Part shown: in pieces, positions 3,553 through 43,770 of the stretch
Layout of the letters: every line of letters starts with the position of its first letter
How positions within the stretch are numbered: position 1 is the stretch's first letter
Translations under genes and position numbers: made by a program
The notes under the pieces: model-generated
Database searches by the model: none
Seen by the model: the letters and a program-made list of their open reading frames with translations, nothing else
What the model was told of the DNA's origin: nothing
Source: Nitrospinota bacterium
GTDB lineage: Bacteria > UBA8248
DNA length: 43,909 nt
NCBI GenBank assembly: GCA_046581755.1
Contig: JAYGFR010000283.1
Coordinates: 1-43,909 of the forward strand
Direction of reading: 5' to 3'

Positions 3553-4449
3553 ATGGGCCTTTTTCTGATAGTCGTGATTTTCGCGCTCATCCTTTTCGTC
3601 TTCGCCCACATCGCTGCCTACGCCATCCGCTGGGTGGAGGAAGGAAAATGGGCCGGGGACAAACGCTCCATCACCGAGGCCCCGCTATCGGACGGGCTCC
3701 ATATCCTGGCGGAGCTTCTTTGCAGCTTCATCATTCTCTCGCTGTCGATTCTCGACCTCATCCTCAGCCTCCGGAATTTCCATTGGAGGCGGAAAAAACC
3801 CGCGTCCGCCCCGCCCCCATCGGCTGCGCCTTCCGCCCCGGCCGCCGCCACGCCGGACACCGCCGCCCCGGCCGGAAGACCCATCGTCCTCCTGCACGGG
3901 GCCGGAATGCGCGGGCTCTCGATGGCGCCCCTCGCCAGAAAGCTCCGGGCCGAGGGCCGGACGGTTTTCTCCTTTACCTACTGGCCGCCAGGCATGCCGT
4001 TCGCCGCCTATGCCCGCCAGCTGTCGGATTATCTAGATTCCATCGGGAAAGAGCGCGGGTTCACCGAATTTGACGCGGTCGGCCACAGCGCGGGCGGGGT
4101 GATCCTCCGGCGGTTTTTGGCGGCACATAACGATCCCCGGCGCATCGTGCGAATCGTCACCCTGGGCGCCCCTCACGGCGGCTCCGAGCTCTGGCGCTTC
4201 GCGCCCTCGGAGCTGGGCCTTCAGTTGCGCCCTGGAGGGCCGTTTTTAGAGCGCCTGGACGAGGGGGGCCTTCCCCCCGGGATGGAGGCAACCGCCATTG
4301 CGGGCGATTTCGATCAGTTCGTCATCCCCAACGCATACGCGCGCTGGGAGAGCCCGGGCGTCTCGAACCACACCATCCAGAACGCGGGCCATGCCCGCCT
4401 CATCTTTCACCCGGAAACCCTCCGCATCATCCGCCAAGCACTCTCCTAG
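3553..4449 (+). CDS. Membrane-anchored alpha/beta hydrolase (lipase/esterase-like)
   Basis: Two N-terminal hydrophobic segments, Pro/Ala linker, VLLHG oxyanion motif, GHSAGG nucleophile elbow, TLGAPHGGS, C-terminal GH. Start moved to ATG 3553, which follows an RBS. Confidence 0.8.
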   Translation: MGLFLIVVIFALILFVFAHIAAYAIRWVEEGKWAGDKRSITEAPLSDGLHILAELLCSFIILSLSILDLILSLRNFHWRRKKPASAPPPSAAPSAPAAATPDTAAPAGRPIVLLHGAGMRGLSMAPLARKLRAEGRTVFSFTYWPPGMPFAAYARQLSDYLDSIGKERGFTEFDAVGHSAGGVILRRFLAAHNDPRRIVRIVTLGAPHGGSELWRFAPSELGLQLRPGGPFLERLDEGGLPPGMEATAIAGDFDQFVIPNAYARWESPGVSNHTIQNAGHARLIFHPETLRIIRQALS

Positions 4450-4500
4450 CGGAGCGCTCTCCCGGCCGGGCGGCCGGGCGGGGTGGGAGAGGGGGCGGGA

Positions 4501-5486
4501 TCATTCCCATCCCTCGAGACAGGCGGCGAGATAGGACAGGACGCAGCCCTCGCCCCAGTATTCGGGAGCGCCCGGATTTCTCCCCCCGATGAACCCAGCG
4601 TGCCCTCCGGCCGGAAGAAACAAGCCCCGCAGCCAGGGCGAAGTGCGGACGGCCTCGGCGGGATAGCTCCGCTCCGGAACGATGGGGTCGTTCCGGGCGC
4701 TCAGAATAAGCGCCGGAAGCCGGATCTCGGGGATATCCTCGATCGAGCTTGCCGCCGCGTAGTATTCGCGCTCATCGGCGTATCCGTGAACGGGCGCGGT
4801 CGCCCAGCGGTCGAACTCGACAAAGGTCCGCGCCCGGCGGACGCGCTCGGTGTCGATGATACCGGGGTAGCGCGCGGACAGTTCCTGGCATTTCGCGCGC
4901 AGGGTGGACAGAAGGGGCCGGCGGTAGATCGCCCCGCCAGGCCGGTCGATTACCCTGGCGCACTCGCCGGCCTCGAAGGAGGCCGAAACGGCCGCCGCCC
5001 CGCGCAACGAAGGAGGCAGCCCCTCCCCTCTTTCGCCCAGCCATTTCAACAAGACGTTTCCGCCCAAGGAGAATCCGGCGATCAGGAGCGGACCCTTCAC
5101 CCGCCCGGCCAGCCGGCGGGCGGCGAAATCGAGATCGCCCGTCTCGGCGGAATGGTAGAGGCGCGGCATGCGGTTGGGCTCGCCGCTGCAGGAGCGGAAA
5201 TTCAGGGCGGCGGCACACCAGCCAAGGGCCGAGGCCCCCGCCGCCAGGCCGCGGATATAGTGGGAATCGGACGAACCCTCAAGACCGTGCAACAGGAGAA
5301 GGGTGGGCGCCTCCGCCCGCCCCGGGTCCACGAAGTCGATATCGAGAAAATCGCCGTCCGGAGTGTCCCACCGCTCGCGCCGCCAGGGGACTCGCAGCCC
5401 TCCCCGGAACAGGGCGCCCCAAAAGCTCTGAAAATGCGGCCCCTGGCAGAACCAGGAAGGCCGAAAGGGCGCGGGCGCCCATTCAC
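4501..5486 (-). CDS. YheT-family alpha/beta hydrolase (start uncertain, possible frameshift near the 5' end)
   Basis: PHFQS, RERWDTPDGDFLDIDF, LHGLEGSSDSHY, NFRSCSGEPN, GFSLGGNVLLKWLGE, NDP, GGHAGF. There is no in-frame ATG/GTG/TTG between 5601 and the conserved N-terminus. Confidence 0.8.
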
Positions 5487-5530
5487 GTAAGCCCCGCGGC
5501 GGTAATCGAGACGAGAGCCTTCCCTCCCTT

Positions 5531-6448
5531 TTAATCGCCGCCGAAGAAGAAGGGCGCGTAAATGTCCTCGCGGGTCGAGGGAAGGTGATGTTCCCGGACA
5601 ATCTTGTGCTTCTGGAGGAGAACCTGATAGAGCCCGAGCGAGCCCGAATAGAAACACTCGGCCGAGTTGACCAGCCAGAGGCGGTAGATCCGGTAGGTGC
5701 GCTCTCCGACGATTTCCTTGATGCGCCCGGCGTTGCGCTCGAGATTGTCGTACCACTGGTGGCAGGTCCGCGCGTAGTGGAGGCGGAGATTCTCGACGTC
5801 GAGGATCTCCCAATGCTCCCGTTCTATGATGTCCATGATATGGGAGAGGTTGTCCATCTCGCCGTTGGGGAAAATGTAGCGCCTGAGAAATTCCCATTGG
5901 CTCGTCCATTTCCAGAACTTGGTGTGGGTGATTCCGTGATTGAGGAATAGTCCGCCCTCGCGGAGGCGGTTGTGGACCCAGCCGAAATAAAACGCATAGT
6001 TCGCGATGCCGATGTGTTCGATGATCCCGATGGCCGATATTTTCCGATAGGTCTGCCCCTCGGGAAGGTCGCGGTAGTCCTTGTGATAAATCTGGCACCG
6101 GTCCCCGAGCCCTTCGCGGCGGACCCACTCCTGGCCCCATTTGGCCTGCTCGATCGAGAGGGTGACGCCGGTGGTCTTGACGCCGTAATTCTTGGCCGCC
6201 CAGATGGCCAGGCTACCCCAACCGCATCCGATGTCGAGATACTCCTCGCCGGGCGATAGGCGGAGCTTGCGGCAAACAAGGTCCATCTTGTCCATCTGGG
6301 CCTGGGCGAGGTCCCCTTCGGGGTCGCGGTAGTAGGCGCAGGTGTAGAGCATGTTTTCGCACAGGAATTGTTGGTAAAATTTATTCGACAAATCGTAGTG
6401 ATGGGAGATCGCCTCGGCGTCGAACTCTTTCGTCCAGGACTTAATCAT
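5531..6448 (-). CDS. Cyclopropane-fatty-acyl-phospholipid synthase-like SAM methyltransferase, catalytic domain only
   Basis: ISHHYDLSNKFY, MLYTCAYY, LDIGCGWG, GVTLSIEQ, IGIIEHIG, LNHGIT, RYIFPNG, ENLRLHYARTC. GAGGAG RBS before ATG 6448. Confidence 0.9.
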   Translation of the reverse strand: MIKSWTKEFDAEAISHHYDLSNKFYQQFLCENMLYTCAYYRDPEGDLAQAQMDKMDLVCRKLRLSPGEEYLDIGCGWGSLAIWAAKNYGVKTTGVTLSIEQAKWGQEWVRREGLGDRCQIYHKDYRDLPEGQTYRKISAIGIIEHIGIANYAFYFGWVHNRLREGGLFLNHGITHTKFWKWTSQWEFLRRYIFPNGEMDNLSHIMDIIEREHWEILDVENLRLHYARTCHQWYDNLERNAGRIKEIVGERTYRIYRLWLVNSAECFYSGSLGLYQVLLQKHKIVREHHLPSTREDIYAPFFFGGD

Positions 6449-6475
6449 GACTCTCTCCTCCGGCAAATGAGCAAA

Positions 6476-7588
6476 TTATCCGATCCCGAAAGCGCCTTCG
6501 AGCACGACGCGTCTCCTGAGCCAAGCGTTCCCGCACATTCGTTTCGCAACGGATTGGATCAACCGATCCGGAATAATTTTCACCACCTTGTCCACGAAGC
6601 CCTCCTCGCCCGCGCCGTAGACTTCCGCCAGGCGCTTTGAGTAGGCCTCCAGGGAGGAGCGGCCTTCGAGCCAATCGTGAATCGTCTCCGATGCCATGCG
6701 CGCGCTTCGCACGGCGGGGCCGATGCCCTCTCCGCTGAAATCCTGGGCCAGACCCGCCGCATCGCCCACCAGAAGAAATCGCTCCCCGGCGGGATTCCTC
6801 GCCTTGCCCCGCTGGATGGAATAGGCGTGCCCCTTGAAGGGCGTCAGTTCGATGTCCTCCGGGAGCCTGCCGCTCCGCCTCAGAGTCTCCAGGAACGCGT
6901 CCCGCCGTGCATGGACGATCGGCCTCTTGCCGACGCATCCCACCCCGATGTTCAAAAATCCACCCTTGGTGAAGTACCAGGCGTATCCCTTGAAATCGGG
7001 CTCGGCGAACAGCTCGGGGCGCCCATAGTGGGGGGCGATTTCCTGGAGGGTCGCGGCGCCGACCTCGGTTTCGCTCTCCTGGGTGAGGACGACGACCTCC
7101 TCCCTCGAAACGCTGCCGAGCGCACGGGCGATAGGGCAGGCATGGCCTCCCGCGCCGATGACCGCCTCACCCTCGATCCATCCGCCGCCGGTATCGAGCC
7201 GGACGCCATCCGGCCCCGCCTCGACCGCCCGCACCCGGACCCCCTGGCGAACCTCGGCGCCCGCCTCCTCGGCTCGGCGCAGGAGGTAGCCGTCGAATTC
7301 GCTCCGGATGATTCCGTAGCTCGCCGGCTCGTGCCAGCGCGTTTCCTTCAGCTTGCCGTCGTATCCGACGAATATCGAATCGAACGCCTGGATGGTGTGC
7401 GGATAATCCTGCGGATTCAGTTCGAGATCGGCCATGCATTTTTTCGTCACCCATCCGGCGCAGAGCTTCACCCGGGGAAATTCCATCGCCTCGAGAACGA
7501 GAACCCTCCTCCCGACCCGGGCCAATTGCCAGGCGGCCGTGCTGCCCCCGGGTCCGCCGCCGACAACGATAACGTCCCAATCGCTCAT
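6476..7588 (-). CDS. Geranylgeranyl-reductase-family FAD-dependent oxidoreductase
   Basis: VVGGGPGGS, FPRVKLCAG, IIRSEFDGYL, GYAWYFTK, LVGDAAG...GEGIGPA. The ATG overlaps the upstream stop (ATGA, 7588-7585). Confidence 0.85.
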   Translation of the reverse strand: MSDWDVIVVGGGPGGSTAAWQLARVGRRVLVLEAMEFPRVKLCAGWVTKKCMADLELNPQDYPHTIQAFDSIFVGYDGKLKETRWHEPASYGIIRSEFDGYLLRRAEEAGAEVRQGVRVRAVEAGPDGVRLDTGGGWIEGEAVIGAGGHACPIARALGSVSREEVVVLTQESETEVGAATLQEIAPHYGRPELFAEPDFKGYAWYFTKGGFLNIGVGCVGKRPIVHARRDAFLETLRRSGRLPEDIELTPFKGHAYSIQRGKARNPAGERFLLVGDAAGLAQDFSGEGIGPAVRSARMASETIHDWLEGRSSLEAYSKRLAEVYGAGEEGFVDKVVKIIPDRLIQSVAKRMCGNAWLRRRVVLEGAFGIG

Positions 7589-7938
7589 TCCGGAATCCTC
7601 TTGACGCGCAGCCCGATTTTGAGCTTTTGCCAATACGAGATATCCAACTCATCGATGGAGTCGGCGACCTTCATGACATCGAACAAATTCCCGAGGAGGT
7701 CGATATCTCCGTCGCAATACGCCTGGGCAAACGCCGCCGATGTCGGATTCATCAAAAGCCTCTTGAACGCGCGCACCGAGGGGATCACCACGGTCACAGG
7801 GCCGACATCCCGGCCCAGCGGCACCTCGTTTTGATCCCACAGGCGAATTTTAAATCCATTACGAACCGAGGAAAAAATTTCCTGAAGCAATACACTCGCC
7901 TGGACGGCGGACGGTTCCAAGGATAATTCAGAGCCCAT
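7585..7938 (-). CDS. Stand-alone Cfa N-terminal (lipid-binding/dimerisation-type) domain protein, 117 aa
   Basis: FKIRLWD...VTVVIPSVRAFKRLLMNPTSAAFAQAYCDGDIDLLGNL matches the N-terminal domain of two-domain CFA synthases (irlWDG ... lgeAYv.GdiDieGdl). AAGGGGAG RBS. Confidence 0.7.
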   Translation of the reverse strand: MGSELSLEPSAVQASVLLQEIFSSVRNGFKIRLWDQNEVPLGRDVGPVTVVIPSVRAFKRLLMNPTSAAFAQAYCDGDIDLLGNLFDVMKVADSIDELDISYWQKLKIGLRVKRIPE

Positions 7939-8215
7939 CGGCCGCTCCCCCTTATCGTTAAAGAGGTCAAATCGGCAAGAACCCAGGAAACATCGCGGCC
8001 CCCGGATTCCGGGCGCCACGAACCCGATTTTACCCCATGATACAATCGATCGACACCAAAGAAAGTTCTTTTAATTCGATTTTTGCGGAAAAAAGGCATT
8101 ATCAACCGGCTCTCGGCGGGGCCGGTCCGGCTAGCGGGCCTCCCGCCGGAAACGCGCGGCCAATGGTGGATTGGAAGGGGTATCGAAGGGCCTCGGGCGG
8201 GGGACCGTGACCCGT

Positions 8216-9181
8216 TCAGCCCGAGCGGCGGTCCAGGACTTCGGCGTTGACCAGGTTGATCGGGCGGGCGCCCGCTATGGCCCGGCGGATATTCTCGGCG
8301 GTGCGCCCGAGGGCCGCCGCGTCGGTCTCTTTCGTCCGCGAGGCATGATGGGGGCTAATCAGTACGTTGGGAATCGCGCGCAGGGGATGATCCGGAGCGA
8401 GCGGCTCGGGGTCGGTGACGTCCAGCCCGAGGCCTGCCAGGCGGCCCTCCCGCATGGCGTCCAGCAAATCCTCCGTCACGGCGGTGGGCCCGCGCGAGAC
8501 GTTGATCAGGATGGCGCTTTTTTTCATCCGGGCGATGGACGCCGCGCATAGGATCCCGCGCGTCTCCTCCGTCAGGGGCATGCAAAGGACCAGATAATCC
8601 AAGCGCGGCAAAAGCGCTTCGAACGAGCAGAACTCCAGCGGCGTGCCGGGAACCCGCGCCGGGTCCGGGGTGCGCGTGTTGACGAGGATCTTCATGCCGA
8701 ATCCATTGCCCATCCGGGCCAGGCTTTTTCCGATATCGCCCAGCCCCACGATTCCCAACGTTTTTCCGCCGAGTTGGAGCATGGGCGTGGTTTCCCAGGC
8801 GGGCTCGTCCTTCATCCAGGCGTTCCGCGAGAGGTAGAGCATCAGGAAAACGGCGTGCTCGGCCACGGCGGGCCCGCGCACCCCCTCGACGTTGCACACC
8901 ATGACCCCGCGCGTGGTCGCGGCCTCGACATCGATGTTGTTGTAGCCCGCCCCGGGCTTGGCCACCGCCTTGAGACCCTCGCCGCAGGCGTCCATCATCT
9001 CGGCCGTGAAGGGGTCGAAGCAGGTCACCACCCCATCGGCCCCCGGGAGGAGCGGCATCAACTCCTCGGGCGAGTATCCTCCGGGCCAGACCATCTCGTA
9101 TCCCGGCCCGAACCAATCCTCGCCCGTATCCCAGTGGTCCATCCGGACAAAAATCGGGTCCGCTATCACGATTTTCGGCAT
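8216..9181 (-). CDS. D-isomer-specific 2-hydroxyacid dehydrogenase
   Basis: GAGYNNID, GIVGLGDIG, INVSRG, LDVTDPEPL, ISPHHAS. Confidence 0.9.
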   Translation of the reverse strand: MPKIVIADPIFVRMDHWDTGEDWFGPGYEMVWPGGYSPEELMPLLPGADGVVTCFDPFTAEMMDACGEGLKAVAKPGAGYNNIDVEAATTRGVMVCNVEGVRGPAVAEHAVFLMLYLSRNAWMKDEPAWETTPMLQLGGKTLGIVGLGDIGKSLARMGNGFGMKILVNTRTPDPARVPGTPLEFCSFEALLPRLDYLVLCMPLTEETRGILCAASIARMKKSAILINVSRGPTAVTEDLLDAMREGRLAGLGLDVTDPEPLAPDHPLRAIPNVLISPHHASRTKETDAAALGRTAENIRRAIAGARPINLVNAEVLDRRSG

Positions 9182-10361: not shown

Positions 10362-11453
10362 TTACCCGATGATCTTCAACTCGGGCACGCTGAAGGGCGC
10401 CGATGAATTATGGATGGCCACTTGAAGCGCGACGTTGCGCGCGGCCTCTCGAAAGGCCTTCGCCACGGGGCTGTCCGGCTCGCTGACGACCACCGGCTCG
10501 CCCCGGTCGCCGCCCAGGCGGATTTTGATGTTCAGGGGAATTGCGCCCAGAAAGGAGACCTCGTAGCGCGCGGCGGCGCGCTCGCCGCCCCCGGTGTCGA
10601 AAATATCCTCCCGGTTGCCGCAGCTCGGACACTCGTAGTAACTCATGTTCTCGATAATGCCGAGAATCGGGACCTCCGTCTTCCGGAACATCTGGAGGCC
10701 CTTGCGCGCGTCGAGCAGGGCGATCTCCTGCGGGGTGGTGACGATGACGGCCCCGGAGAGGGAGACCTGCTGCACGATCGTCAGTTGGGCGTCGCCCGTT
10801 CCCGGAGGAAGGTCGAGGAGCAGATAATCCAAATCCTCCCAGAGGGTCTCCCCCAAAAACTGGACGAGGGCCTTCATCACCATGGGGCCGCGCCAGATGA
10901 CGGGGCTGTCCCCTTCCACCAGAAATCCCATGGACATGACCTGCACGCCGTGGGCCTTGAGGGGAAAGATGCGGTTATTTTCGTCCGCCGTGGGTTTTTC
11001 GTTCGGAATCCCGAGCATCTGGGGCTGGCTCGGCCCGTATATATCCGCGTCGAGCACGCCGATTTTCGCGCCCTCGGCCACCAGCGCTAGCGCCAGGTTC
11101 GCGGTCACGGTGGATTTACCCACCCCGCCCTTGCCGCTGGCCACGGCGATGATGTTCTTCACGCCATCAACCGCCATCTTCCCCTGGGCGGCGGCCCGGG
11201 CGGTGACGTGGCTCTCCAGGCGAACGTTGACGGTGGCCACGCCATCGAGCGTACCGACGGCCATCCGGCATTCGTCCAGAAAATAATCTTTTCGCGGATG
11301 GGCCGGCGTCGTCAGCTCCAGGGTAAAGGCCACCGCATCTCCGCAAACTAGAACGTCCTTGATCATTTTCAGGCTGACCAAATCCTTGCCCAGGTCCGGG
11401 TCCTTGACTGATTTCAGGGCATCGAGAATCTGTTCGCTCGTGACTTCAGGCAT
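10362..11453 (-). CDS. apbC: Mrp/ApbC/NBP35 Fe-S cluster carrier ATPase
   Basis: VKDPDL N-domain, SGKGGVGKST, DADIYGPS, VIWRGPM, DLPPGTGD, ENMSYYECPSC. Confidence 0.92.
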   Translation of the reverse strand: MPEVTSEQILDALKSVKDPDLGKDLVSLKMIKDVLVCGDAVAFTLELTTPAHPRKDYFLDECRMAVGTLDGVATVNVRLESHVTARAAAQGKMAVDGVKNIIAVASGKGGVGKSTVTANLALALVAEGAKIGVLDADIYGPSQPQMLGIPNEKPTADENNRIFPLKAHGVQVMSMGFLVEGDSPVIWRGPMVMKALVQFLGETLWEDLDYLLLDLPPGTGDAQLTIVQQVSLSGAVIVTTPQEIALLDARKGLQMFRKTEVPILGIIENMSYYECPSCGNREDIFDTGGGERAAARYEVSFLGAIPLNIKIRLGGDRGEPVVVSEPDSPVAKAFREAARNVALQVAIHNSSAPFSVPELKIIG

Positions 11454-11781
11454 CGAATTCAACTCCCCTGGCGCGTATCCGCGCGACGGATAGACATTGG
11501 ATAACCGGGCCCAGCGCGGCGGCCGCAACGGCCATCGCCTCAACTCTCCTGCCCGGAACAGTGGCCTATAGTAGGGTTCGGTTTTCGGCAGTGTCAAACT
11601 CTTGGAACTCCCGATTTCAGACCTTTACGACCTTATACTCGGAAAAATTCTTCGGTCCGGTTGACGCCGTGTCGCCCGAGGGACTAAATGTTCCCTGGCC
11701 TTCCCCGGCACGGCCGAAGGACCGTCGCGAAGGCCCTATCTTCAGGAATTTTTCATTATCGAGCAGAGGGGAAGCGGGAAA

Positions 11782-12582
11782 TTGGACATCATCGTATGCG
11801 TCAAGCAGGTCCTCGACCATGACATTCCGCCCAGGGATTTCAAGGTGGACGAGGAAAATCTCACCGTGGTTCCACCGTCGAACGTATCGCCGGTCATCAG
11901 CAACTTCGATGAATACGCCATCGAAGAGGCCATCATTCTGAAGGAGGCCCACGGCGGTAAAATCACCGTCGTCACCGCCGGAGGTGACAGCGCCAGGGAC
12001 CTTCTTAAAAAATGCCTGGCCATGGGTTGCGACGAAGCGGTCCTCCTCCAGGACGAGAGTTTCGACGGTTCCGACTCGTTCGGGATCGCCCGGATTCTCG
12101 CCGGCGCCATCCAGAAAATCGGCGCGTTCGACATTATCCTTTGCGGCCGGATCAGCAGCGACTGGAGCCAGGGAACGACATCCCTCGCCCTGGCCGAGGC
12201 CCTGGATCTCCCCAGCGTCTCTCAACTCATCAAGATCGAAGTCAACGGAAACGCCCTCCGCTGCGAGCGCGTCCTCGAGGACGGAGAAGAGGTGGTCGAG
12301 GTCACCACCCCCTGCCTGCTCACGACGAGCAACGAGATCAACTCGCCACGCCTCCCCTCGGTGAAGGGAATCCTGATGGCCTCGCGGAAACAGATCCCCG
12401 TTTGGGGGGCCGGGGACATCGGCGTGGACCCGGCGGCCGTGGGCGCGGGAGCGTCCACGCTCGAGCTCACCAAACTCTATAAACCCAATCTGGGCTCTCA
12501 GTGCGAATTTATCGAGGCCGACTCGCTCGAAGAGGCCGCCGACAAACTCGGAGATCGGCTGCGCGAAGACAAAATCATATAA
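11782..12582 (+). CDS. etfB: Electron transfer flavoprotein beta subunit
   Basis: IIVCVKQV, FDEYAIEEA, AMGCDEA, DIILCGRISSD, INSPRLPS. TTG start. Confidence 0.92.
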   Translation: MDIIVCVKQVLDHDIPPRDFKVDEENLTVVPPSNVSPVISNFDEYAIEEAIILKEAHGGKITVVTAGGDSARDLLKKCLAMGCDEAVLLQDESFDGSDSFGIARILAGAIQKIGAFDIILCGRISSDWSQGTTSLALAEALDLPSVSQLIKIEVNGNALRCERVLEDGEEVVEVTTPCLLTTSNEINSPRLPSVKGILMASRKQIPVWGAGDIGVDPAAVGAGASTLELTKLYKPNLGSQCEFIEADSLEEAADKLGDRLREDKII

Positions 12583-12604
12583 ATTCATCCGGAGAGATAT
12601 TTTC

Positions 12605-13597
12605 ATGTCGAACGACGTACTCATTTTAGCCGAAAGCAACAATGACAGACTCACGATAGTTAGCAGCGAGCTTTGCCAAATCGGGCGAAAGCTCGCCGAC
12701 GAGAAGGGCGGCTCCCTGATCGGCCTGCTGCTGGGCGGGGCGGGAACCAAAGAACTCGCCAAGGGGATAATCGCCCTGGGGGCCGACAAGGTCCTCGCCG
12801 CCGAGGCGGACATTCTCGCGGGATACAACAATGCCGCCTATACACAGGTCGTCAGCGGCGCTGTCGCCGAGACCGGCCCCGCCATCTTTCTGCTGGGCTG
12901 CACCTCGATCGGGCGCGACGTGGCGCCCCGCGTCGCCTTCCGCCTCGGCGCCAGCTATGCCAACGACTGCACCGAGCTATCCCTCGAAGAGGGTGTGCTG
13001 GCCGCGGTGCGCCCCGTGTACGGGGGCAACGCGTTGAGCCATGTCCGCTCGAAGCCGGGCCTTATTGCCATGGCCTCCATCCGGATGAAGGCTTTCCCGC
13101 CCGCCGACATCGAGGAGGGGCGGAGCGGCGAGCTGGTCGAGGTCGCCGTTTCGGTCGAGTCCGGCGAACTCAAGATGAAATTCGTCGAGACCCGGCAGGT
13201 CGAGGCCGAGGGCGTTCGCCTCGAGGATGCCGAATATGTAGTGAGCGGCGGCCGGGGCCTGGGCGGGCCGGAGAATTTCGAACAACTCAATAAGCTGGCC
13301 AAGGTTCTCAAGGCGGCCGTGGGCGCCAGCCGCGCAGCCGTGGACGCCGGATGGGTGCCCACCCATATGCAGGTGGGCCAGACGGGCAAAATCGTGAGTC
13401 CGATGCTCTATATTGCTGTGGGGATTTCGGGCGCCATGCAGCACATGGTGGGGGCCGGACCGAGCAAAAACATCGTGGCCATCAACACCGACCCCGATGC
13501 GCCGATCTTCCAGCGCGCGCGCTACGGCATCGTGGGCGACTACAAGAAGGTCGTTCCGGCGCTGACCGAAAAACTCCAGAAGCTGCTCGAAAACTAA
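12605..13597 (+). CDS. etfA: Electron transfer flavoprotein alpha subunit
   Basis: [59 protein letters not shown]. Confidence 0.95.
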
Positions 13598-13609: not shown

Positions 13610-14329
13610 TCAAACCAGCGGCTGATAGGCCCAGACCACACGGCCCAGGATCCAATCATCGGGGCTATCCGAGTTCAGGTCGATGTGGACCACGGGCTCG
13701 TCGCGGTTTTCGGGCACCAGCCAGAGGCGGGGCGGCGTCCATTGCAGCCGCTTGAGGGTGCATCCCCCCGAATCGTCCCGGACCGCGTATATTCCGTTTT
13801 CGGCGATGACCTTGTCCCGCCGGTCGATGACCACGACCGCGCCGGGCTGGATGAGCGGAAGCATGCTCCGGCCCATTTTCCGATCCACGCGAACGGCCAC
13901 CAGGTCGGTTCTGCCCGTCACCTGGGAGATGTGGATCAGGGCGTATTCCTCGATCTCCTCGTCCACGATCAGGGCTCTTCCCGCGGCGATGGAGTCCGAA
14001 ACGAGGGGAACGGCGCGGAACTCGCTCTCATCGACACTCCCCGGGCCCTGAATATTTTCCGACATGCGCACCGCCACATCGATGGGCCCGGCCGCCATCG
14101 TCTCATGGGCGCCCTTGCGGCCCATGAGCCAATCCGCCGAAACCCCCAGGGCCTCGGCGATGCGAAGGAGCTTGCCCGCGCTGGGCTCGTTTTCTCCCTC
14201 TTCGTAGCGGACGAGATTCGCCCAGCTCAGGCTGGAGGCCTTGGCGAGCTGGTTGCGGTTCCAGCCACGACGCTCGCGGGCCTCGGAGATGCGTCTTCCA
14301 GTTTCTGAAAATTTCGCGGATTTAGCCAT
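13610..14329 (-). CDS. XRE HTH plus S24 peptidase repressor (CI/LexA-like)
   Basis: N-terminal HTH (RISEARERRGWNRNQLA...RYEEGENEPS...IAEALGVSADWL), IAAG autocleavage site, GRSMLP catalytic Ser, TLKRL catalytic Lys, ILGRVVW. Confidence 0.88.
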   Translation of the reverse strand: MAKSAKFSETGRRISEARERRGWNRNQLAKASSLSWANLVRYEEGENEPSAGKLLRIAEALGVSADWLMGRKGAHETMAAGPIDVAVRMSENIQGPGSVDESEFRAVPLVSDSIAAGRALIVDEEIEEYALIHISQVTGRTDLVAVRVDRKMGRSMLPLIQPGAVVVIDRRDKVIAENGIYAVRDDSGGCTLKRLQWTPPRLWLVPENRDEPVVHIDLNSDSPDDWILGRVVWAYQPLV

Positions 14330-14479
14330 TATGCGAATCGGGATGATCGGCTCCCACGTTTCGGCGGCGGGGGGGTGCACAATGTTTCAACGCTCTGATC
14401 GCTTAAATTCTAACACTTTGCACAAGGGCCGAAAAGAGATGGTACCTCCGAAAATATTCCCGAAAAAATGAAAAATTTT

Positions 14480-30957: not shown

Positions 30958-32192
30958 AAACCATCTATTTCGATTGTTTCGCCGGGGCGAGCGGTGACAT
31001 GCTCCTGGGGGCGATGCTCGATCTGGGCCTTTCCCTGGACGCTCTGAAAGAGCATCTCGGCAAACTCGATTTGGCCGGCTACGATATTACTCTTGAGCCG
31101 GTCGTGAAATGCGGTGTGACCGCGAAGCAATTCCGGGTCAAAACCCACCCCGCTCAAAGCGGCGGCGGCGCCCATCACATAGGAAGTCCGGCCACCCATG
31201 GGCGCTCCCTGAAGACCATCGAGCGGATCATCGGGGAAGCGCAAATCCCGCCTCGGCCGCGGGAACGGGCGCTCAAGGCCTTTCGGCGGCTTGGAGCCGT
31301 GGAGGCCGGCGTCCACGGGGTTCCGGTGGAATCGGTCCATTTTCACGAAATCGGCGCGATCGATTCCATCGTCGATATCACCGGATATTTCCTCGCCCTC
31401 GAACTCATGGATATCGAAAGGGTTGTCTCCTCCCCCCTTCCGCCCGGAAAAGGATTCGTCCAGACCGCCCACGGGCGAATGCCTGTGCCGGCTCCCGCGA
31501 CCGCCAAACTCCTGGAAGGAATCCCCGTCGCCGATAACGGGATGGAGGGCGAGATCCTGACGCCAACGGGGGTGCTCCTTCTCTCGGAGAGCGCCGAAGC
31601 CTTCCAGGCAATGCCCTCGATGACGGTCACCGCCGTCGGCCATGGCGCGGGAGAAAAGGAGCAGTCCATTCCCAATATTGTGCGCGCTTTTTGGGGTGAA
31701 GGCGGCACGGTCCCGCTCGCCGCCTCTCAGCCGGATACGATTTCCATCCTGGAAACCAATATCGACGATATGAGCGCGGAAATTTTTCCCCACGTCATCG
31801 AAGGGCTCATGTCGCGTGGCGCTCTGGACGCATTCGTCATCCCCACCATCGGGAAAAAAGGGCGGCCCGCCTCCCTACTTACCGCCTTGTGCCCAACAGA
31901 GAAACACGATGCCCTTATTCTCTATTTATTCCAGGAAACGACGACCCTTGGTGTTCGCCACAGGATATCCGCGAGAACAACTGCGGAGCGCGACTGGATA
32001 GATGTGAAACTTCCCTGGGGGCAGGTCCGGGTGAAGCGGGCGCGTTATCAGGGACGGGCCGTCAATCTCGCTCCGGAATTCGAGGATTGCCGGAATTTGG
32101 CCGAATCGGCCGACGTTCCACTAAAAGAGGTCCTGAATGCGGCTGCCGCCTGCGCGAGGCGCATTTTGACGGGAGAGCAGGAGAAGCCGTGA
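30954..32192 (+). CDS. larC: NPN-cofactor nickel insertase LarC (single full-length ORF)
   Basis: YFDCFAGASGDMLLGA, VHFHEIGAIDSIVDI, HGRMPVPAPAT, TPTG, LETNIDD, KKGRP, ETTTLGVR, APEFEDC. The ATG overlaps the larB stop. Confidence 0.95.
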   Translation: MKTIYFDCFAGASGDMLLGAMLDLGLSLDALKEHLGKLDLAGYDITLEPVVKCGVTAKQFRVKTHPAQSGGGAHHIGSPATHGRSLKTIERIIGEAQIPPRPRERALKAFRRLGAVEAGVHGVPVESVHFHEIGAIDSIVDITGYFLALELMDIERVVSSPLPPGKGFVQTAHGRMPVPAPATAKLLEGIPVADNGMEGEILTPTGVLLLSESAEAFQAMPSMTVTAVGHGAGEKEQSIPNIVRAFWGEGGTVPLAASQPDTISILETNIDDMSAEIFPHVIEGLMSRGALDAFVIPTIGKKGRPASLLTALCPTEKHDALILYLFQETTTLGVRHRISARTTAERDWIDVKLPWGQVRVKRARYQGRAVNLAPEFEDCRNLAESADVPLKEVLNAAAACARRILTGEQEKP

Positions 32193-32431
32193 AAATCCAG
32201 CTCCGCCTCTATGCGGATTTCGAGGAGAAAATGCCGTCCACGTTGGAGGAGGACGGCTCGGCCAGCATTGAATTTGAGAAAGGCGCAGAGGTGAAGGACA
32301 TCCTGGATCGATACAAAATTTCCTATGAGGACGCTTACGTCATTCTCCTGAACGGCCGCCACGCAAAAAAAGAAACGCTCCTCATCGAAGGCGCTGAGCT
32401 TTGCATATTCCCGCCGGTTGTCGGCGGTTAG
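32189..32431 (+). CDS. ThiS/MoaD-family sulfur-carrier protein, 80 aa
   Basis: KIQLRLYA...ILLNG...IFPPVVGG* ubiquitin-like fold ending in Gly-Gly. The GTG overlaps the larC stop (GTGA) and follows an AGGAG RBS. Confidence 0.88.
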   Translation: MKIQLRLYADFEEKMPSTLEEDGSASIEFEKGAEVKDILDRYKISYEDAYVILLNGRHAKKETLLIEGAELCIFPPVVGG

Positions 32432-32435
32432 AAAG

Positions 32436-32897
32436 CTATTCTTTCCGAGCGACCATCAATACAAATTCACCTTCCTGGACGGTCTCTTCATTTTGATTCA
32501 TCAATTTTATGCCCAGGGTGACCAGACCCTGCCCCTTGTTTGTCAGCCGGGTCATTTTCACTTCGACTTTCGCATGAACCGTATCATCGAACATGATTGG
32601 TTTTCGAAACCGCATCTCAACGCCCATGAAAGCCTCAACCGTACCCTCTAGGATACCCAGCCGGGTGATAAGTCCGGACAGATAGGAGAGCCCCAAAAGG
32701 CCATGCGCGATGCGGTCGCCGAAGGGCGACTTTGATGCGGCCTCGGCGTCCGTATGCAGGTAGGTGTAATCCCCGGTAAGCCCCGCGAACGCAGTGACAT
32801 CCGCCTCCCCGATGGTCCGCGCGGCCGTTTCCCAAATGCGGCCCGCCTCAAAATCTTCAAAGTACAGGCCCGTTGGAGCATTGCCCACAACCAGCAA
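32436..32897 (-). CDS. MaoC-family dehydratase
   Basis: YFEDF, RTIGEADVTAFAGLTGDYTYLHTD, PFGDRIAHGLL, RFRKPIMFDDT. Confidence 0.88.
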   Translation of the reverse strand: MLVVGNAPTGLYFEDFEAGRIWETAARTIGEADVTAFAGLTGDYTYLHTDAEAASKSPFGDRIAHGLLGLSYLSGLITRLGILEGTVEAFMGVEMRFRKPIMFDDTVHAKVEVKMTRLTNKGQGLVTLGIKLMNQNEETVQEGEFVLMVARKE

Positions 32898-32932
32898 GCC
32901 TCCCGGTAAAATTCATTTCAGCTAGATTCGGG

Positions 32933-33769
32933 CTAGCGAATCCGGAAGCGGTAAATGATCTGGCCCCACTCCTCGCGCGGGGGCTCATCATGGCGAAGTG
33001 CGGTGAAGCGCCACTGCCTCAGATTATTTCCCGCGATTGCCTCTAGATACGCGCTACCCTTTCGGATGGGAACCACACGCCCCACCGTGCCGTCGGACAA
33101 GACCCAAAACCGAAGTTCAATGTCACCCGAGGATTCGAGATTCTTCACTATCGGCGGCGGGGGACGGAAAACGATTCTTCTCGCGGCGGCAGGTCCGCGA
33201 ATGGATTGCCGCCCGGTCCCCGCACCGCCCACTAGCGCGTATTTGGATACTTCTCTTTCGAAATCTCGAATTTCTCCCCTGCCCAACCCAGCCAACGGAT
33301 TTTTCCCTGGAATCAGACTCTTCCCCGCTCCCGGCTTACCGAGTGGGAGGAAAACCTCTTCGGGCGTGACAGAGGAATTTTCCTTTTTCTGAAATGCAAG
33401 CATGTCCAAAGGCGTCACCGGCTGCGGCATGTTCAGTCCCGGCATACCAGCTGCCAAAATGCTCCTTGGAATATTCCGGGGCGGCGGAATTTTATGTTCT
33501 ACATTAATTTTTGGATTGGATTTTTCCAGCCCCCTCCCTTTCTTTATCAACAAACGCTTCAAATCGAGGGGTTCAGGCTGGGAAACCTCCGGAATGGGTT
33601 TGGGGCGGAGAGCATCGGGAATCGGCACTACGCGGCGAAGCATCTTCACTTCAATGGAATCTTCTGGAATTTCCTCGATTAGAATCGGACGAATTCCGGG
33701 ACCAAAAATAAATAGCGCCGCATGAACGACCATAGACAACACCATCGCGGATATCAGTGTGCCACTCAT
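32933..33769 (-). CDS. TonB-like energy transducer
   Basis: N-terminal TM with SMVVH (SxxxH motif), Pro-rich periplasmic linker, C-terminal domain GDIELRFWVLSDGTV...LRQWRF. Confidence 0.8.
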   Translation of the reverse strand: MSGTLISAMVLSMVVHAALFIFGPGIRPILIEEIPEDSIEVKMLRRVVPIPDALRPKPIPEVSQPEPLDLKRLLIKKGRGLEKSNPKINVEHKIPPPRNIPRSILAAGMPGLNMPQPVTPLDMLAFQKKENSSVTPEEVFLPLGKPGAGKSLIPGKNPLAGLGRGEIRDFEREVSKYALVGGAGTGRQSIRGPAAARRIVFRPPPPIVKNLESSGDIELRFWVLSDGTVGRVVPIRKGSAYLEAIAGNNLRQWRFTALRHDEPPREEWGQIIYRFRIR

Positions 33770-33805
33770 CGCCTGCCTCCGTTTCCGTCTTGGCTGGAAG
33801 AGGAG

Positions 33806-34225
33806 CTATTTCTTCTCTTTTGGCCGCCTGGTGGGCGAGGTCGCTATGGCAATCCGATCCGCCCCGGCTTGTTTGGCGACGTCCATCACCCGAACCACGA
33901 AGCCGTGCGGAACGTCGCGATCCGCACGGAGAATCAGAGCCGCTCCGCGTTGGAACTTGAGTTCATTTTCGAGGCGTCCCCAAAGTGCTTTGAACTGGAC
34001 AAGCTCGTTGTTGAGGAATACCCGCTTGTCCTTTGCAATGATTAAAATCAGATCCTTCCGGGCGGGCTGCTCGGATGTTACGGTTCGCGGGAGTTGAACC
34101 TTGATTCCAGGCTGAAGAATGAAAGAAGAACTCAGAACGAAAAAAAGGAGCAAAAGGAAAATTATGTCGATCATCGCAGTCATACCCGGTTCAGCCTGAA
34201 TGCGTTTGCGTTCCCTGATTTTCAT
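33806..34225 (-). CDS. exbD: ExbD/TolR-family protein
   Basis: MTAMIDIIFLLLLFF, IKVQLP, LRADRDVPHG.VVRVMDVAKQAG. Confidence 0.88.
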   Translation of the reverse strand: MKIRERKRIQAEPGMTAMIDIIFLLLLFFVLSSSFILQPGIKVQLPRTVTSEQPARKDLILIIAKDKRVFLNNELVQFKALWGRLENELKFQRGAALILRADRDVPHGFVVRVMDVAKQAGADRIAIATSPTRRPKEKK

Positions 34226-34226
34226 G

Positions 34227-34826
34227 TCATCTCTTTAGCATATCGACGAGACGGAAAGAATATTTTTCCATTTCAAGAATCAGCCGGTCGGATTTGATGG
34301 TGAAATAATTATAAAAAATAAGCGCCGGAATGGCGACGACAAGCCCCGATGCAGTCGTGATCAGGGCCTCGCTGATGCCGCCGGCCAGTTGGCTGGGATG
34401 GGCTATGCCTTTTTCGCTAATGACGGTGAATGTTCGAATCATTCCGAATACCGTTCCCGTAAGCCCGAGCAGCGGGGACACTGCCGCGATGGTTCCGAGC
34501 ATGCCCAGATAGCGATCCAGGGTAGGGACTTCCTGCCTGGCTGCATCCTCGACGATGGTTTTGAGTTCTTCCCGGTCCCGATCATGATTCATGATAGCAG
34601 AAAGAAGAATTCGTCCCATCACCGAGGGCTGCCGCCGACAAACGGTCATCGCCTCCCCGATTTGGTTATCAGCGAGAAGCTCCTTCACCCGCTGAAGAAT
34701 ATCGAGACGAAGGATGCGGTTGGTTCTAAGACTGAATGAACGCTCCAAAATGATCGCTAAGGTAATGACAGAGAATATCCCCAATGGAATCATTATCACG
34801 CCTCCGCGAGCCAAAAAATCAATCAT
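34227..34826 (-). CDS. exbB: MotA/TolQ/ExbB proton-channel protein
   Basis: GGVIMIPL, LGTIAAVSPLLGLTGTVFGMI..F, LAGGISEALITTASGLVVAIP. Confidence 0.9.
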   Translation of the reverse strand: MIDFLARGGVIMIPLGIFSVITLAIILERSFSLRTNRILRLDILQRVKELLADNQIGEAMTVCRRQPSVMGRILLSAIMNHDRDREELKTIVEDAARQEVPTLDRYLGMLGTIAAVSPLLGLTGTVFGMIRTFTVISEKGIAHPSQLAGGISEALITTASGLVVAIPALIFYNYFTIKSDRLILEMEKYSFRLVDMLKR

Positions 34827-34895
34827 CGCGGTCCATCCTTTCATTCATCGAAAGAGGAAAATGCATCAGAAAAATTGCGAAACGTATAAATCCTC

Positions 34896-37800
34896 CTACC
34901 GGCGGGAGCCCGTCTTTTTCATAAGACGCGCAACCGCATCCTCGGCCACTTTTCGCATCGCACCCTTGGGGGCAACCAGCCGCATTTTCTGAAAAATGCG
35001 AAGTGCAGTCGTATGCCTTCCGGCTCTTTCATACAATTCGCCCGCCCGCGCGAGCGCTCGCGTAATCCATATTGTCTGCTTTGGATACCGATAGGTCAAC
35101 TTGAGAAATTCCGACGCCGCCATCCGGTCCCCTCGACGGGAAAGGAGGACTGCCCGGCTGTATTGGGCCTCCGCCGCCACTTTGGGATCGTCCGACAAAA
35201 GAGCGAACTTTAGAGCCTTGGCCGCATCATCGAGTTTCCCCTGCTTTGAAAGCAAGGCCGCCAAAAGAAGGGCGGAGGTAGTTTGAAGCCCGCTGCCCCT
35301 GATTCTTGAATCCTCAACCACCTTCTTCAGGTAAATTACCGCTGTGGCACCATCGCCGAGCTTTGCCGCACAGCGGCCCGCCTCAAATAATGCAACCGGA
35401 ATGTAATTGTGCCCGGGGTAGCGCCTGATAAATTTCCCTAGCCTCTCTTTGGCCTCGGCGCACCGGCCCACACTTGCCAAAGATTCGGCTATCCCAAAAA
35501 CAGCGTCTGCACGCAACGGGCTCTGGGGATATCGGGCAATCAGCGACTCATATGTATCGAGGGTCGCATCCAGCTTATTCCGGCGTTTGTGGATGTTCGC
35601 GATTCGCAACAAGGCCTGGGCGGCCAAACGGTTCGACCCATGGCGAGTAAGCAACTCCCGGTAGGTGCGAAGAGCGGCGTCATAATCTCCCTGCGCCAGG
35701 AGAATTTCCCCCATTTGGAAACCTAGGGAAATAGCGAGTTCATCACCCCCGTATTTTCCAATAAACTTCGTGGACTCCGAAAAGAACATTGGATAATCCT
35801 TTTGCCGCAAACGGGTCAATATCAGGCCATATTCCGCATCCCTCCGTCGAGGATGTTTCGGGAAGCGGTTTATCATCAAGCGATACGCACGATCAGCCTG
35901 CGAGTAGCGGCCTTCATTGTAGAAAGCATCCCCGACGCGCAAATACGCTACCGCAACAAGGGGCGACTTGGAATGGCGTTCGGAAAAATCCAACAATTGG
36001 TTGCGAGCAATGGCGTAGCGCCCCTGCTGAAACAAAATTAGCGCTATCCAGAATTCCACCTCAGAAGCGGCGGCGCTTTTGGGGTATTTTTTTAGATATC
36101 GCGTGAAAATATCGGTAGCTTCGTCAAGCCGGTATCTTCGGAAAAGAAGTTTTCCTTTTTCGAGAAGCGCCTCTCTCGCAACATCCTCGCCGGCAAATCC
36201 CTTTTCAATTCGCTCAAACGCGCGGAGGGCCCCCGCATAATCGCCTAGATTGAATCGAGCCTCCCCCGCACGGGCAAGTGCCTCAGCGGCAAGGGGACCG
36301 CGCGGCTTCATCGTAAATATGCGGTCGAATACAACGGCTGCCTGCTTCCACTCTTTTTTTCTGTAATGAATCCAGGCAAGAGCCGCCTGGGCCCGGTACC
36401 ATTCATCCGAATTTCGGGGAATTTTTTTTAAGGCGCGGCGAGCCAGGTCAAGAGCCCCTGCTTCAAACGCCGCCTCTCCATACCAAAGAGCGGCCTCATC
36501 ATCCGAGGCCTTAGCATTCTTTGAGGCTCCTGCGAAAAAAGCCCAATGGTTGAGCACTTCCTGCGCTCCCGCGTAGTCTTTCAATCGAAAAGCGGCAAAT
36601 GCGGTCGCCATGGCTGCCGAGCGGGCAACGCTGCTTTCGGCCCCGCGCAACCTCTTTCCCACAGGCGGCTTCTCGGCTCCTGACCTCAAGATACCGAAGG
36701 CTTCTCTCACTTTTCCCAGATGGTACAAGCTTAATCCTTCAATGATTCGCCCAAGGCGGTATATGCGTCCCAATGGGTGATTATCGCTAACGGATGCAGC
36801 GAGTTCTTGCGCCTTTTGGTAGTCGCGCTCCCGAAATAGAGCCCATGCCGTTTGAAGTTGCAAAGGTGCGATCTGATCGCTTCCAGGATACTTTTGGGAA
36901 AATTCTTTTAGCAGGCGCTTCGCCTTGGCCGAGTTGGTCTCAATTTGCGCGGCGAGTGCGCCTGCCTCGGCGGACTGCACAAGCTGGTGACCTGGATGCC
37001 TTCGAAAGAAGAGGGCAAAGGCGTGGCCCGCTTCTTCCGTCTTCCCGAGAAGAAGGCGCGACCACCCCACTCCGTTGAGTGCCTCACCCAACAGATCAGA
37101 ATCTTTCTTTCCTCTCGGGGTACGAGTCGATTCAGCCTGCAGGTATGCCTTTTCGGCGCTTGAAAGGTTCCCTGCCATTAAATGTAAATGACCTATCGAT
37201 ACAAGGGCTTTTAGGGCATGCGGATTTTTCTCCACCGCCAATATCCGGAGAACTTCTATCGCCCGCCGATGGGCACCCAACTTGATATGGGCCCAAGCTC
37301 TGAGAAAATGCGCCTCGGCTGATGCAAACCCGCCCAGCGGCCATTTCCCCGAATCGAGCCATCGCAAACACGCCTCGTACTCCCTTTCCTCGCAATGGTT
37401 CGCGGCAAGCGCGTACCGGGCAGCCGCCCGATAGCGGCCGGCCGATGAGGAATTCATTTTCAAGAGACTTTTTCTCCCTTGAATGCTCTCCTCCCGCCGG
37501 CCAAGTTTCATCAAAGTCTCAGCTGCCCAAAACTGAGCAGCTGCCTTCAAGCGAAGCGATTTCGCCAATTTCAAAGTTTCGTCAAACAAGGCAAGTGCCT
37601 CGACGGGTGCATTCTTTTTCAAGTAGGCCAAACCGCTCTCGAATACCTTCTTTACGTCCCCAAAGAGACGCGAAAAAGTGCCTGAAATCTCGGTCAACTC
37701 CGGGTCCGGATCATCTTCCGGGGGAATCGGACGGGGAAGAAAGGGTATTTCCGGAATAGCCGCACGGGGAAAAATTTTCGGAATCCGGATCCCAAGCTGG

Positions 37801-38027
37801 CTAGGCGGGGTGGGGCGGACACGCTGGGCAATGAGCCGCTCGATATTGGGCGACTCAATGACAACCTCCGGAAGGGAAACGGAGAGTTTTTTCCCGGACG
37901 TATCTTCCGCACCAAATACGGCGCCTCCATAAATTCCGAGGACGAAGATGAAAAATACGGCCCGAATTCGAGGGATGACCCCAAATGTAAATTTGCGCTG
38001 CCGAACCGAGTCTCTCATTGTCATCAC
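34896..38027 (-). CDS. Large exported tetratricopeptide-repeat protein (about 1040 aa)
   Basis: N-terminal hydrophobic signal segment and Pro-rich linker, then many BamD/CpoB-style TPRs (YPKS..A, FP.HP, A.LR.GD motifs). Confidence 0.8.
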   Translation of the reverse strand: MMTMRDSVRQRKFTFGVIPRIRAVFFIFVLGIYGGAVFGAEDTSGKKLSVSLPEVVIESPNIERLIAQRVRPTPPSQLGIRIPKIFPRAAIPEIPFLPRPIPPEDDPDPELTEISGTFSRLFGDVKKVFESGLAYLKKNAPVEALALFDETLKLAKSLRLKAAAQFWAAETLMKLGRREESIQGRKSLLKMNSSSAGRYRAAARYALAANHCEEREYEACLRWLDSGKWPLGGFASAEAHFLRAWAHIKLGAHRRAIEVLRILAVEKNPHALKALVSIGHLHLMAGNLSSAEKAYLQAESTRTPRGKKDSDLLGEALNGVGWSRLLLGKTEEAGHAFALFFRRHPGHQLVQSAEAGALAAQIETNSAKAKRLLKEFSQKYPGSDQIAPLQLQTAWALFRERDYQKAQELAASVSDNHPLGRIYRLGRIIEGLSLYHLGKVREAFGILRSGAEKPPVGKRLRGAESSVARSAAMATAFAAFRLKDYAGAQEVLNHWAFFAGASKNAKASDDEAALWYGEAAFEAGALDLARRALKKIPRNSDEWYRAQAALAWIHYRKKEWKQAAVVFDRIFTMKPRGPLAAEALARAGEARFNLGDYAGALRAFERIEKGFAGEDVAREALLEKGKLLFRRYRLDEATDIFTRYLKKYPKSAAASEVEFWIALILFQQGRYAIARNQLLDFSERHSKSPLVAVAYLRVGDAFYNEGRYSQADRAYRLMINRFPKHPRRRDAEYGLILTRLRQKDYPMFFSESTKFIGKYGGDELAISLGFQMGEILLAQGDYDAALRTYRELLTRHGSNRLAAQALLRIANIHKRRNKLDATLDTYESLIARYPQSPLRADAVFGIAESLASVGRCAEAKERLGKFIRRYPGHNYIPVALFEAGRCAAKLGDGATAVIYLKKVVEDSRIRGSGLQTTSALLLAALLSKQGKLDDAAKALKFALLSDDPKVAAEAQYSRAVLLSRRGDRMAASEFLKLTYRYPKQTIWITRALARAGELYERAGRHTTALRIFQKMRLVAPKGAMRKVAEDAVARLMKKTGSRR

Positions 38028-40714: not shown

Positions 40715-40717
40715 CTG

Positions 40718-41572: not shown

Positions 41573-41795
41573 TTAGCCCCAAGCCGCGCCATCCACCAGA
41601 CAGGCCGTCCAGATCCTCGGCCACCGACCTGTGAATGCCCTGCCCAGGCAATGAGGCGGAAACCGCACATTCCTGATCAACAGGCCCCTGTTTGCACCCT
41701 AAATTCCGGCGGACTAAGCGAATACTCTCAGATTTTGAGGGATGAAAACAAGACAAGTTTTATACGGCAAATGATTTTAGAAGATCCCCCCCGCC

Positions 41796-43477: not shown

Positions 43478-43770
43478 CAGTCACCTCAAAATGAAGACCA
43501 AATAGCCATTTTATTGGAAAATTTCAGTAAATTTCAAGGTTTCCCGTGAAACGTGGTGGAAACCTAGCATGTCACCTCCTCACCAGCAAGTCAGTTCAAA
43601 AAATCAGGCCAATATTATATATATCAATTAAAAACACCTAATTTCATCTAAAATGGTTGAACTTTATCCGATGAATCATTGGAAATAATGGTTTTAATCG
43701 ATCATAAATAGTGGTAGGTTAGTTTTGAGTGATGGTGATGTTTATAAGATATTGATTTCAAGTGGTATAA

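Follow-up and report, generated by a model that had tools for sequence, protein, structure and literature searches.

Why would an enzyme that is normally a single chain be encoded as two genes with a third between them? Two-domain cyclopropane fatty acid synthases (Cfa; Escherichia coli 6BQC, Aquifex 7QOS, Lactobacillus 5Z9O, and the CfaB model NF040703) join an N-terminal domain to a catalytic methyltransferase domain. In a 43,909-nucleotide contig of a Nitrospinota bacterium (lineage UBA8248; JAYGFR010000283.1, assembly GCA_046581755.1; hereafter, the window), both domains are present, with the catalytic residues and a linker of nearly full length, but as separate polypeptides accompanied by a partner reductase. 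We conclude that the feature is real and widely conserved, being shared by several groups of uncultured bacteria, and that it represents a variant of a pathway type that is known but only half proven.

A Cfa-family methylase in two genes

The cassette consists of three close open reading frames on the minus strand (5531..7938), in the order N-domain, reductase, methylase catalytic domain. The N-domain gene (7585..7938; 117 residues, PF25371/DUF7884, predicted SCP2-like fold) lies behind a ribosome-binding-site-like stretch (AAGGGGGAG, 7945..7953, minus strand), and its stop codon overlaps the reductase start codon in the sequence ATGA (7585-7588). The reductase gene (6476..7588) encodes a TmpA-like flavin adenine dinucleotide (FAD) flavoprotein of the geranylgeranyl reductase (GGR) family (370 residues), with the motifs FPRxKxCAGW (containing Cys43), GYAWYF, and GDAAG. 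The third gene (5531..6448) encodes a stand-alone catalytic domain of a Cfa-family S-adenosylmethionine methyltransferase; its start is likelier to be the ATG at 6448, behind GGAGGAG (6455..6461, minus strand) and giving 305 residues, than the TTG at 6466. The placement and tight, ATGA-coupled spacing of these frames agree with a first-pass annotation of the locus. No match to a sigma-70-like promoter was found within positions 4300-8400. The host genome is 96.5% complete; the methylase is the sole Cfa-family gene found there, and a membrane desaturase-family gene is a possible source of substrate. RNA-library contigs from three seawater studies contained short pieces of the reductase, the methylase, and the downstream YheT-type hydrolase gene and left the N-domain gene uncovered; transcription is not demonstrable from contigs, and this evidence was not used. 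One sequencing run, probably of DNA, covers all four genes.

Sequence comparison identifies the 117-residue protein as a free N-terminal domain descended from Cfa, in keeping with the resemblance proposed at first pass. It scored 30.3 bits against PF25371/DUF7884 (cutoff, 27) and aligned to residues 5-81 of NF040703. A profile built from 29 of the small N-domains matched 66 longer proteins, 64 of them with a Cfa catalytic domain, and also found the Lactobacillus Cfa N-domain in PDB (expect value [E] = 3.5e-5). Two longer matches outside full-length Cfa, P0140 (part of an N-domain plus reductase, followed by junk) and P0135 (part of an N-domain plus TetR-C), were rejected as genuine fusions; they look like frameshifted single-contig artifacts. 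When the AlphaFold model (predicted local distance difference test [pLDDT], 87.7) was compared with known structures, Cfa N-domains ranked first (7QOS, Foldseek E = 5.7e-4; 5Z9O, a middling Z of 6.9, root mean square deviation 3.4, 90 aligned residues) and SCP2/UbiJ proteins next, with weak similarity to SCP2-fold proteins (Foldseek E = 4.8e-3, for UbiJ-SCP2, to 1e-2; Z = 3.8-5.7, the highest with a root mean square deviation of 4.2 and 88 aligned residues). Across 128 N-domains, the best-conserved columns were W34-D35-G, F-A-E-A-Y..D.E-G-D-L-F (70-86), and a basic residue at 105.

The methylase scored 292 bits against PF02353. Its best NCBIfam model was CfaB (NF040703; 319 bits, under the cutoff of 650), of which it spans positions 99-393, so that it begins at the catalytic domain, as had been proposed. 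Residues C37, G141, E144, H171, and Y225 correspond to E. coli C139, G236, E239, H266, and Y317 and are invariant in 76/76 cassette copies, and the S-adenosylmethionine motif is retained as well; E239, H266, and Y317 have been named as the bicarbonate ligands of E. coli Cfa (PMC11387697), and the first-pass expectation that this site was kept is borne out. The split methylases also have invariant substitutions of their own (A139 for S, I143 for F/L, and C229 for L). In PDB comparisons, the window methylase is much closer to fatty-acyl Cfa enzymes (E = 2e-59) than to terpene C-methyltransferases (E = 4e-6).

We surveyed gene order in a reductase-based sample of 80 genome loci (the best of 200) and 80 metagenome loci (the best of 534), for which neighborhoods were fetched; the sample includes kin and duplicates, and its counts are therefore not independent. 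The full trio was present in 144 of the 160 loci (33/35 family-level, 38/45 other genome, and 73/80 metagenome loci), confirming the predicted synteny. Among the remainder, nine loci were ended by the contig end, and seven had no N-domain gene beside the reductase. No fusion of the N-domain to the catalytic domain was found among the 160 loci. By their record titles and tree labels, the cassettes come from Nitrospinota/Tectomicrobia, Rokubacteria/Methylomirabilota, Binatia, Myxococcota, and one Planctomycetota genome. Outside the host family, identity to the window proteins was 54-59% for 39 methylases, 49-58% for 44 reductases, and 27-46% for 39 N-domains. Overlap of the N-domain stop with the start of the reductase gene (-4 or -1) was seen in 100 of the 131 triplets that were scored. 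Because the identical order recurs across related loci (144/160) and the overlaps are conserved, we rejected an assembly break, a frameshift, or chance as the origin of the split. The distance between the WD and HYD motifs, summed over both halves, was 101 residues, compared to 97-127 (median, 113) in 41 full-length relatives; since the halves together retain nearly the full length, the split point lies in the linker.

Within the host family, 24 relatives yielded the N-domain in 22, the methylase in 23, and a close reductase in 23, and gene order was intact in 21 of 22 fetched neighborhoods, the remaining one being interrupted by a contig end. The N-domain was absent from 16/16 more distant genomes examined. 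None of the three genes was found in G004, a 97% complete genome of the window's genus. In the phylum that holds Rokubacteria (that of G049), the reductase occurs in 93 of 251 genomes, a count of the reductase alone made without fetching neighborhoods. No conserved fourth gene was detected among 44 non-family loci, where recurring neighbors were tied to lineage. The split is thus the norm in this cassette, and it is the new element. We found no description of such a layout in the open-access literature, a search that lay outside patents and most subscription papers; the accessible text of PMC11387697 describes many short Cfa homologues without an N-domain and does not mention a separately encoded one.

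The reductase and the tmpBA system

The window reductase (P0002) scored 167.2 bits against TIGR02032 (cutoff, 158.8) and fell under the cutoffs of all the specific GGR models (ChlP, BchP, MenJ, and digeranylgeranylglycerophospholipid reductase). The top structural match of its model (pLDDT, 90.6) was the archaeal lipid GGR 3OZ2 (template modeling score, 0.75), and Foldseek ranks 2-9 were halogenases and monooxygenases that share the flavoprotein fold. It shares with 3OZ2, the archaeal digeranylgeranylglycerophospholipid reductase, and with the GGR family TIGR02032 the fold, FAD motifs, a conserved cysteine, and a YxWxF-type motif, but it is 23% identical and bears a CAGW signature. FPRxKxCAGW is kept in 157/157 cassette-type reductases, and generic GGRs carry CGGG or CAGG at that place. 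Cys43 within CAGW aligns with the position of a cysteine reported as essential in the Sulfolobus acidocaldarius GGR, and several GGRs require ferredoxin or dithionite (PMC10821996). A search of plasmids returned distant GGRs alone (best, 33.5%).

A Cfa-like methylase paired with a GGR-like flavoprotein has already been published as tmpBA ("ten-methyl palmitate"), in which TmpA resembles archaeal GGRs and not BfaA (PMC7791843). The pair itself is therefore not new, and the "different enzyme pair" proposed in the first-pass annotation does not survive. The tmpBA hosts include Desulfobacter, Desulfobacula, Marinobacter hydrocarbonoclasticus, and Thiohalospira halophila, and five of five tmp-operon hosts are listed as producers of 10Me16 (PMC7791843, Table S2). 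Four of five tmp operons yielded 10-methylenepalmitate in E. coli and none yielded the methyl product; Marinobacter and Thiohalospira TmpB made 10-methylene fatty acids in E. coli lacking cfa (PMC7791843). Like tmpBA, the cassette combines in one operon a Cfa-family methylase bearing the bicarbonate ligands with a GGR-like flavoprotein that belongs to the CAGW group. It differs in that its methylase is cut in two around the reductase, whereas tmpBA has a single full-length tmpB followed by tmpA, and in that its methylase belongs to a separate CfaB-like lineage and its reductase to a clade of its own. The actinobacterial bfaAB/tmsAB route to tuberculostearic acid has the same two proposed steps, a methylene branch and then its reduction, but BfaA uses reduced nicotinamide adenine dinucleotide phosphate (NADPH) and is unrelated to TmpA/GGR, and BfaB is one chain (PMC7791843, Fig. 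1 legend and Table S3). The window reductase scores above the TIGR02032 cutoff and shows the fold of GGRs, which sets it apart from the BfaA type; the earlier statement that BfaA/TmsA is not GGR-family was correct, and what it overlooked was the GGR-like TmpA.

Trees were inferred by quick IQ-TREE runs, with Shimodaira-Hasegawa-like approximate likelihood ratio (SH-aLRT) values as the only branch support, from chosen subsets of 123, 61, 47, and 25 rows; a careful search of the 61-row set was unfinished. They represent TmpA by intact-operon look-alikes fetched here, in place of the published proteins, and Marinobacter itself is absent from them. In the 47-row tree, cassette reductases formed one clade (SH-aLRT, 100), joined with TmpA-type proteins of intact operons and apart from generic GGRs (95); the grouping in the 123-row tree was similar. 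Whether the cassette clade is nested in the TmpA-type proteins or sister to them is unsettled, the 25-row tree having placed eight intact ones on one side with support of 91. Sequence identity between cassette reductases and the TmpA-like proteins from intact operons is 29-40% (38% over 372 residues between the window protein and one of these), and comparison by eye with the published Marinobacter TmpA revealed FPRxKxCAGWVT, GAGGHxCP, PELxF, KGYAW, FKGHAY, and GEGIxPA in common. By its grouping with the reductases of intact Cfa-reductase operons, we classify the cassette reductase as TmpA-type.

The methylases gave a different picture. In the 61-row tree, the split methylases formed their own clade (100), nearest to full-length CfaB-like proteins and apart from Marinobacter-type TmpB-like proteins and E. 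coli Cfa. This tree was made without Desulfobacter-type proteins, which score as E. coli-type (one such TmpB-like protein reached 586 against the E. coli Cfa equivalog cutoff of 400). One full-length Cfa (L206:4600-6126, minus strand, in genome G043) was placed within the split clade, where it has a long branch; this position is unsure, and it is possibly a re-fused protein or a tree artifact. Because gene structure and methylase orthology to TmpB were tested and neither agrees, we do not file the cassette as tmpBA, but we infer from sequence that it works like tmpBA.

Proximity to a Cfa-family gene is nearly universal among TmpA-type reductases. In one phylum sample, 17 of 19 reductase matches adjoin a Cfa-family gene (15 intact tmpB-tmpA and 2 split); the other two branch outside the TmpA-type group, and no Cfa was found in their genomes. 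In a second sample, 5/5 TmpA-type reductases adjoin such a gene (four intact and one split). Intact tmpB-tmpA-like operons thus occurred in 19 of the genomes sampled, from two phyla (L211-L214, L221-L227, L229, and L231-L237), beyond the five published hosts, and those fetched fall into two types, resembling the Marinobacter and Desulfobacter proteins. The methylase partners of TmpA-type reductases thus come from no fewer than three Cfa lineages.

A natural exchange of methylases was apparent in four kin genomes (G041-G044). In each, a cassette-clade reductase is the single match and both flanking halves are gone; an orphan full-length Cfa lies elsewhere, with no reductase within 5 kb, and groups with intact TmpB-like proteins (99). 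The same reductase subclade includes G733, which has the split trio together with a TmpB-type methylase (73% identical), and four other cassette genomes have the split methylase alone, with no TmpB-type one. The simplest reading of these sequences is that a TmpB-type methylase was gained, both halves were then lost, and the reductase was kept, a history that would imply a methylene intermediate shared by the two methylases. The reductase can therefore persist without a free N-domain beside it.

A proposed pathway and its alternatives

We consider it probable, on the strength of these comparisons, that the cassette is a split version of tmpBA in which methylenation followed by reduction gives mid-chain methyl-branched (10-methyl-type) acyl chains on membrane phospholipids. 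The same order of steps had been suggested at first pass, and it is supported here as the likeliest chemistry. The free N-domain would use its conserved FAEAY..D.EGDL segment to dock in trans with the catalytic domain, as can fairly be expected by analogy, and would draw an unsaturated acyl chain from the membrane like the tethered domain of E. coli Cfa. After methylenation, the FAD protein, reduced by a donor that is probably ferredoxin- or ETF (electron transfer flavoprotein)-like, would turn the methylene into a methyl group; a methylene would present an isoprenoid-like branched double bond, the type that GGRs reduce.

More tentatively, the freed N-domain could be a shared SCP2-like carrier that passes the acyl chain from methylase to reductase in a putative three-protein complex, which would make the hosts unrecognized producers of mid-chain methyl lipids; we regard this extension as possible but doubtful. 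The predicted SCP2/UbiJ-like fold of the N-domain fits such a role, and so does the coupling of its translation to that of the reductase. UbiJ serves several enzymes within one complex and, like other free SCP2-fold carriers, resembles the cassette protein in being a small stand-alone domain, here a predicted one, beside lipid-modifying enzymes; the fold likeness is nevertheless weak, and the cassette domain derives from the Cfa N-domain. The intact tmpBA operons, and the G041-G044 reductases with no free domain alongside, count against any need for a shared carrier.

Several observations weigh against the proposed split-tmpBA pathway. E. coli Cfa loses most of its activity when its linker is cut or changed (PMC11387697). 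Methylene-forming and cyclopropanating enzymes are indistinguishable by sequence, the bicarbonate ligands being common to both; the best NCBIfam model of the methylase is named as a cyclopropane synthase; and the split methylase is not orthologous to the tested TmpB in the 61-row tree. TmpA was inactive in E. coli and yeast, with no activity ever shown (PMC7791843), so that the reduction is unproven even in the reference tmpBA. The exchange in G041-G044 is one event among kin, and the order of its steps is unrooted. The literature yielded no lipid profile for any organism that carries the cassette. Methylomirabilis makes 10MeC16:0 (PMC6581649), but a Cfa gene was found in 0/10 pmoA-bearing genomes of its phylum, whose completeness was unstated (G398, G399, G402, G403, G407-G410, G412, and G417; an 11th, weaker pmoA match was left out), so 10-methyl lipids can form without this system. 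Five of the pmoA-bearing genomes were checked for the reductase and had a generic GGR alone (about 175 bits). The cassette was accordingly rejected as the source of 10MeC16:0 in Methylomirabilis, and Methylomirabilis-like genomes probably encode another, third route to 10-methyl fatty acids.

The halves might rebuild an ordinary cyclopropane fatty acid synthase, with the flavoprotein sharing its promoter and doing a separate lipid job, such as saturating leftover double bonds or quinone tails. The CfaB-like affinities of the methylase (nearest full-length relatives and best NCBIfam model), its retention of every cyclopropane-synthase catalytic residue, and its standing as the genome's sole Cfa all accord with this explanation. 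However, the reductase group nearly always adjoins a Cfa-family gene, from three different lineages, and the reductase was lost with both halves in G004 and kept in the genomes that have a TmpB-type methylase, G041-G044. Because a separate job predicts neither joint loss nor exchange, we judge this explanation unlikely.

Two further alternatives keep the enzymes coupled and change the product or the substrate. UfaM/MmaA1-like chemistry leaves a methyl branch next to a trans double bond that has shifted. A product of this or another branched kind, which the flavoprotein would reduce, isomerize, or oxygenate to something other than a simple 10-methyl acid, would suit a distinct methylase clade with invariant substitutions of its own, a fold common to halogenases and monooxygenases, and the unproven chemistry of TmpA; it fits less well with 3OZ2 as the top structural match of the reductase, with the agreement of Cys43 in CAGW with the essential archaeal GGR cysteine (PMC10821996), and with the bicarbonate-type site retained through G141, and we hold it to be improbable. 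Alternatively, an isoprenoid or ether-lipid chain (quinone tail or polyprenol) could be C-methylated and then saturated on the SCP2-like domain. GGR-family enzymes typically reduce isoprenoid chains, and the N-domain model resembles UbiJ-SCP2 (best E = 4.8e-3), but the far closer match of the methylase to fatty-acyl enzymes and the lack of any recurring prenyl or quinone gene beside the trio in 44 non-family loci make such a substrate very unlikely. The split-tmpBA pathway remains our preferred account.

Neighboring genes and implications

A YheT-type hydrolase gene (4501-5530, minus strand; 207 bits against PRK10985, under the cutoff of 267) follows the methylase, as the first-pass annotation had it. 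It is downstream in 27 of 35 family-level loci but in only 1 of 45 others, itself labeled Nitrospinota, and was therefore rejected as a fourth member of the cassette. The window copy has apparently intact GFSLGG, D, and H motifs, with no ATG, GTG, or TTG between a purine-rich stretch past the methylase stop and the first conserved motif; a close relative (L127) has an ATG at the matching place, and the gene is missing from three genomes of the window's genus. The window copy may be decaying. Mrp/ApbC Fe-S carrier and ETF beta/alpha genes (10362-13597) lie near the cassette across the host family and not in other phyla, and on this synteny ETF is a possible electron donor for the reductase. In Binatia-like loci (L088:7120-8019, minus strand; also L083, L098, L115, and L079), a diiron-type gene converges on the reductase locus; the L088 copy weakly matches acyl-ACP (acyl carrier protein) desaturase (PF03405, 20 bits; cutoff, 22.7), and such a gene could supply unsaturated substrate. 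Most family relatives (loci L024-L042) have about 1 kb extra between the 2-hydroxyacid dehydrogenase and N-domain genes; the gap is 278 bp in the window, and the window's genus shares the shorter form. The window also encodes a LexA/CI-like helix-turn-helix-S24 regulator (13610-14380, minus strand), and its G+C content drops from about 63% to 52-55% over the last 12 kb (31000-43909), which suggests foreign DNA.

The way in which Cfa enzymes draw out acyl chains has been described as unknown (PMC11387697), and a naturally split, conserved pair lets the role of the Cfa N-domain be tested in trans. If the shared-carrier reading is true, natural Cfa enzymes can do without the linker, and TmpA-type reductases require a partner that presents the lipid. 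The cassette clade also adds over 150 new candidates for TmpA, the proposed second methylene reductase. Desaturase-family genes were present in 5/5 cassette hosts tested, so the cassette enzymes may be oxygen tolerant, a property that could aid production of branched-lipid lubricants. Mid-chain branched fatty acids make up 20% or more of the fatty acids of sponges, and their producers are described as unresolved (PMC7840048). The shared-carrier reading, if true, would also make Rokubacteria, Binatia, and UBA8248-like bacteria unrecognized sources of the mid-chain methyl fatty acids that serve as biomarkers in soil and sponges. The reductase occurs in 93 of 251 genomes of one phylum and in 23 of the host's 24 family relatives; if the chemistry holds, the sources to which methyl-branched lipid markers are assigned would need another look.

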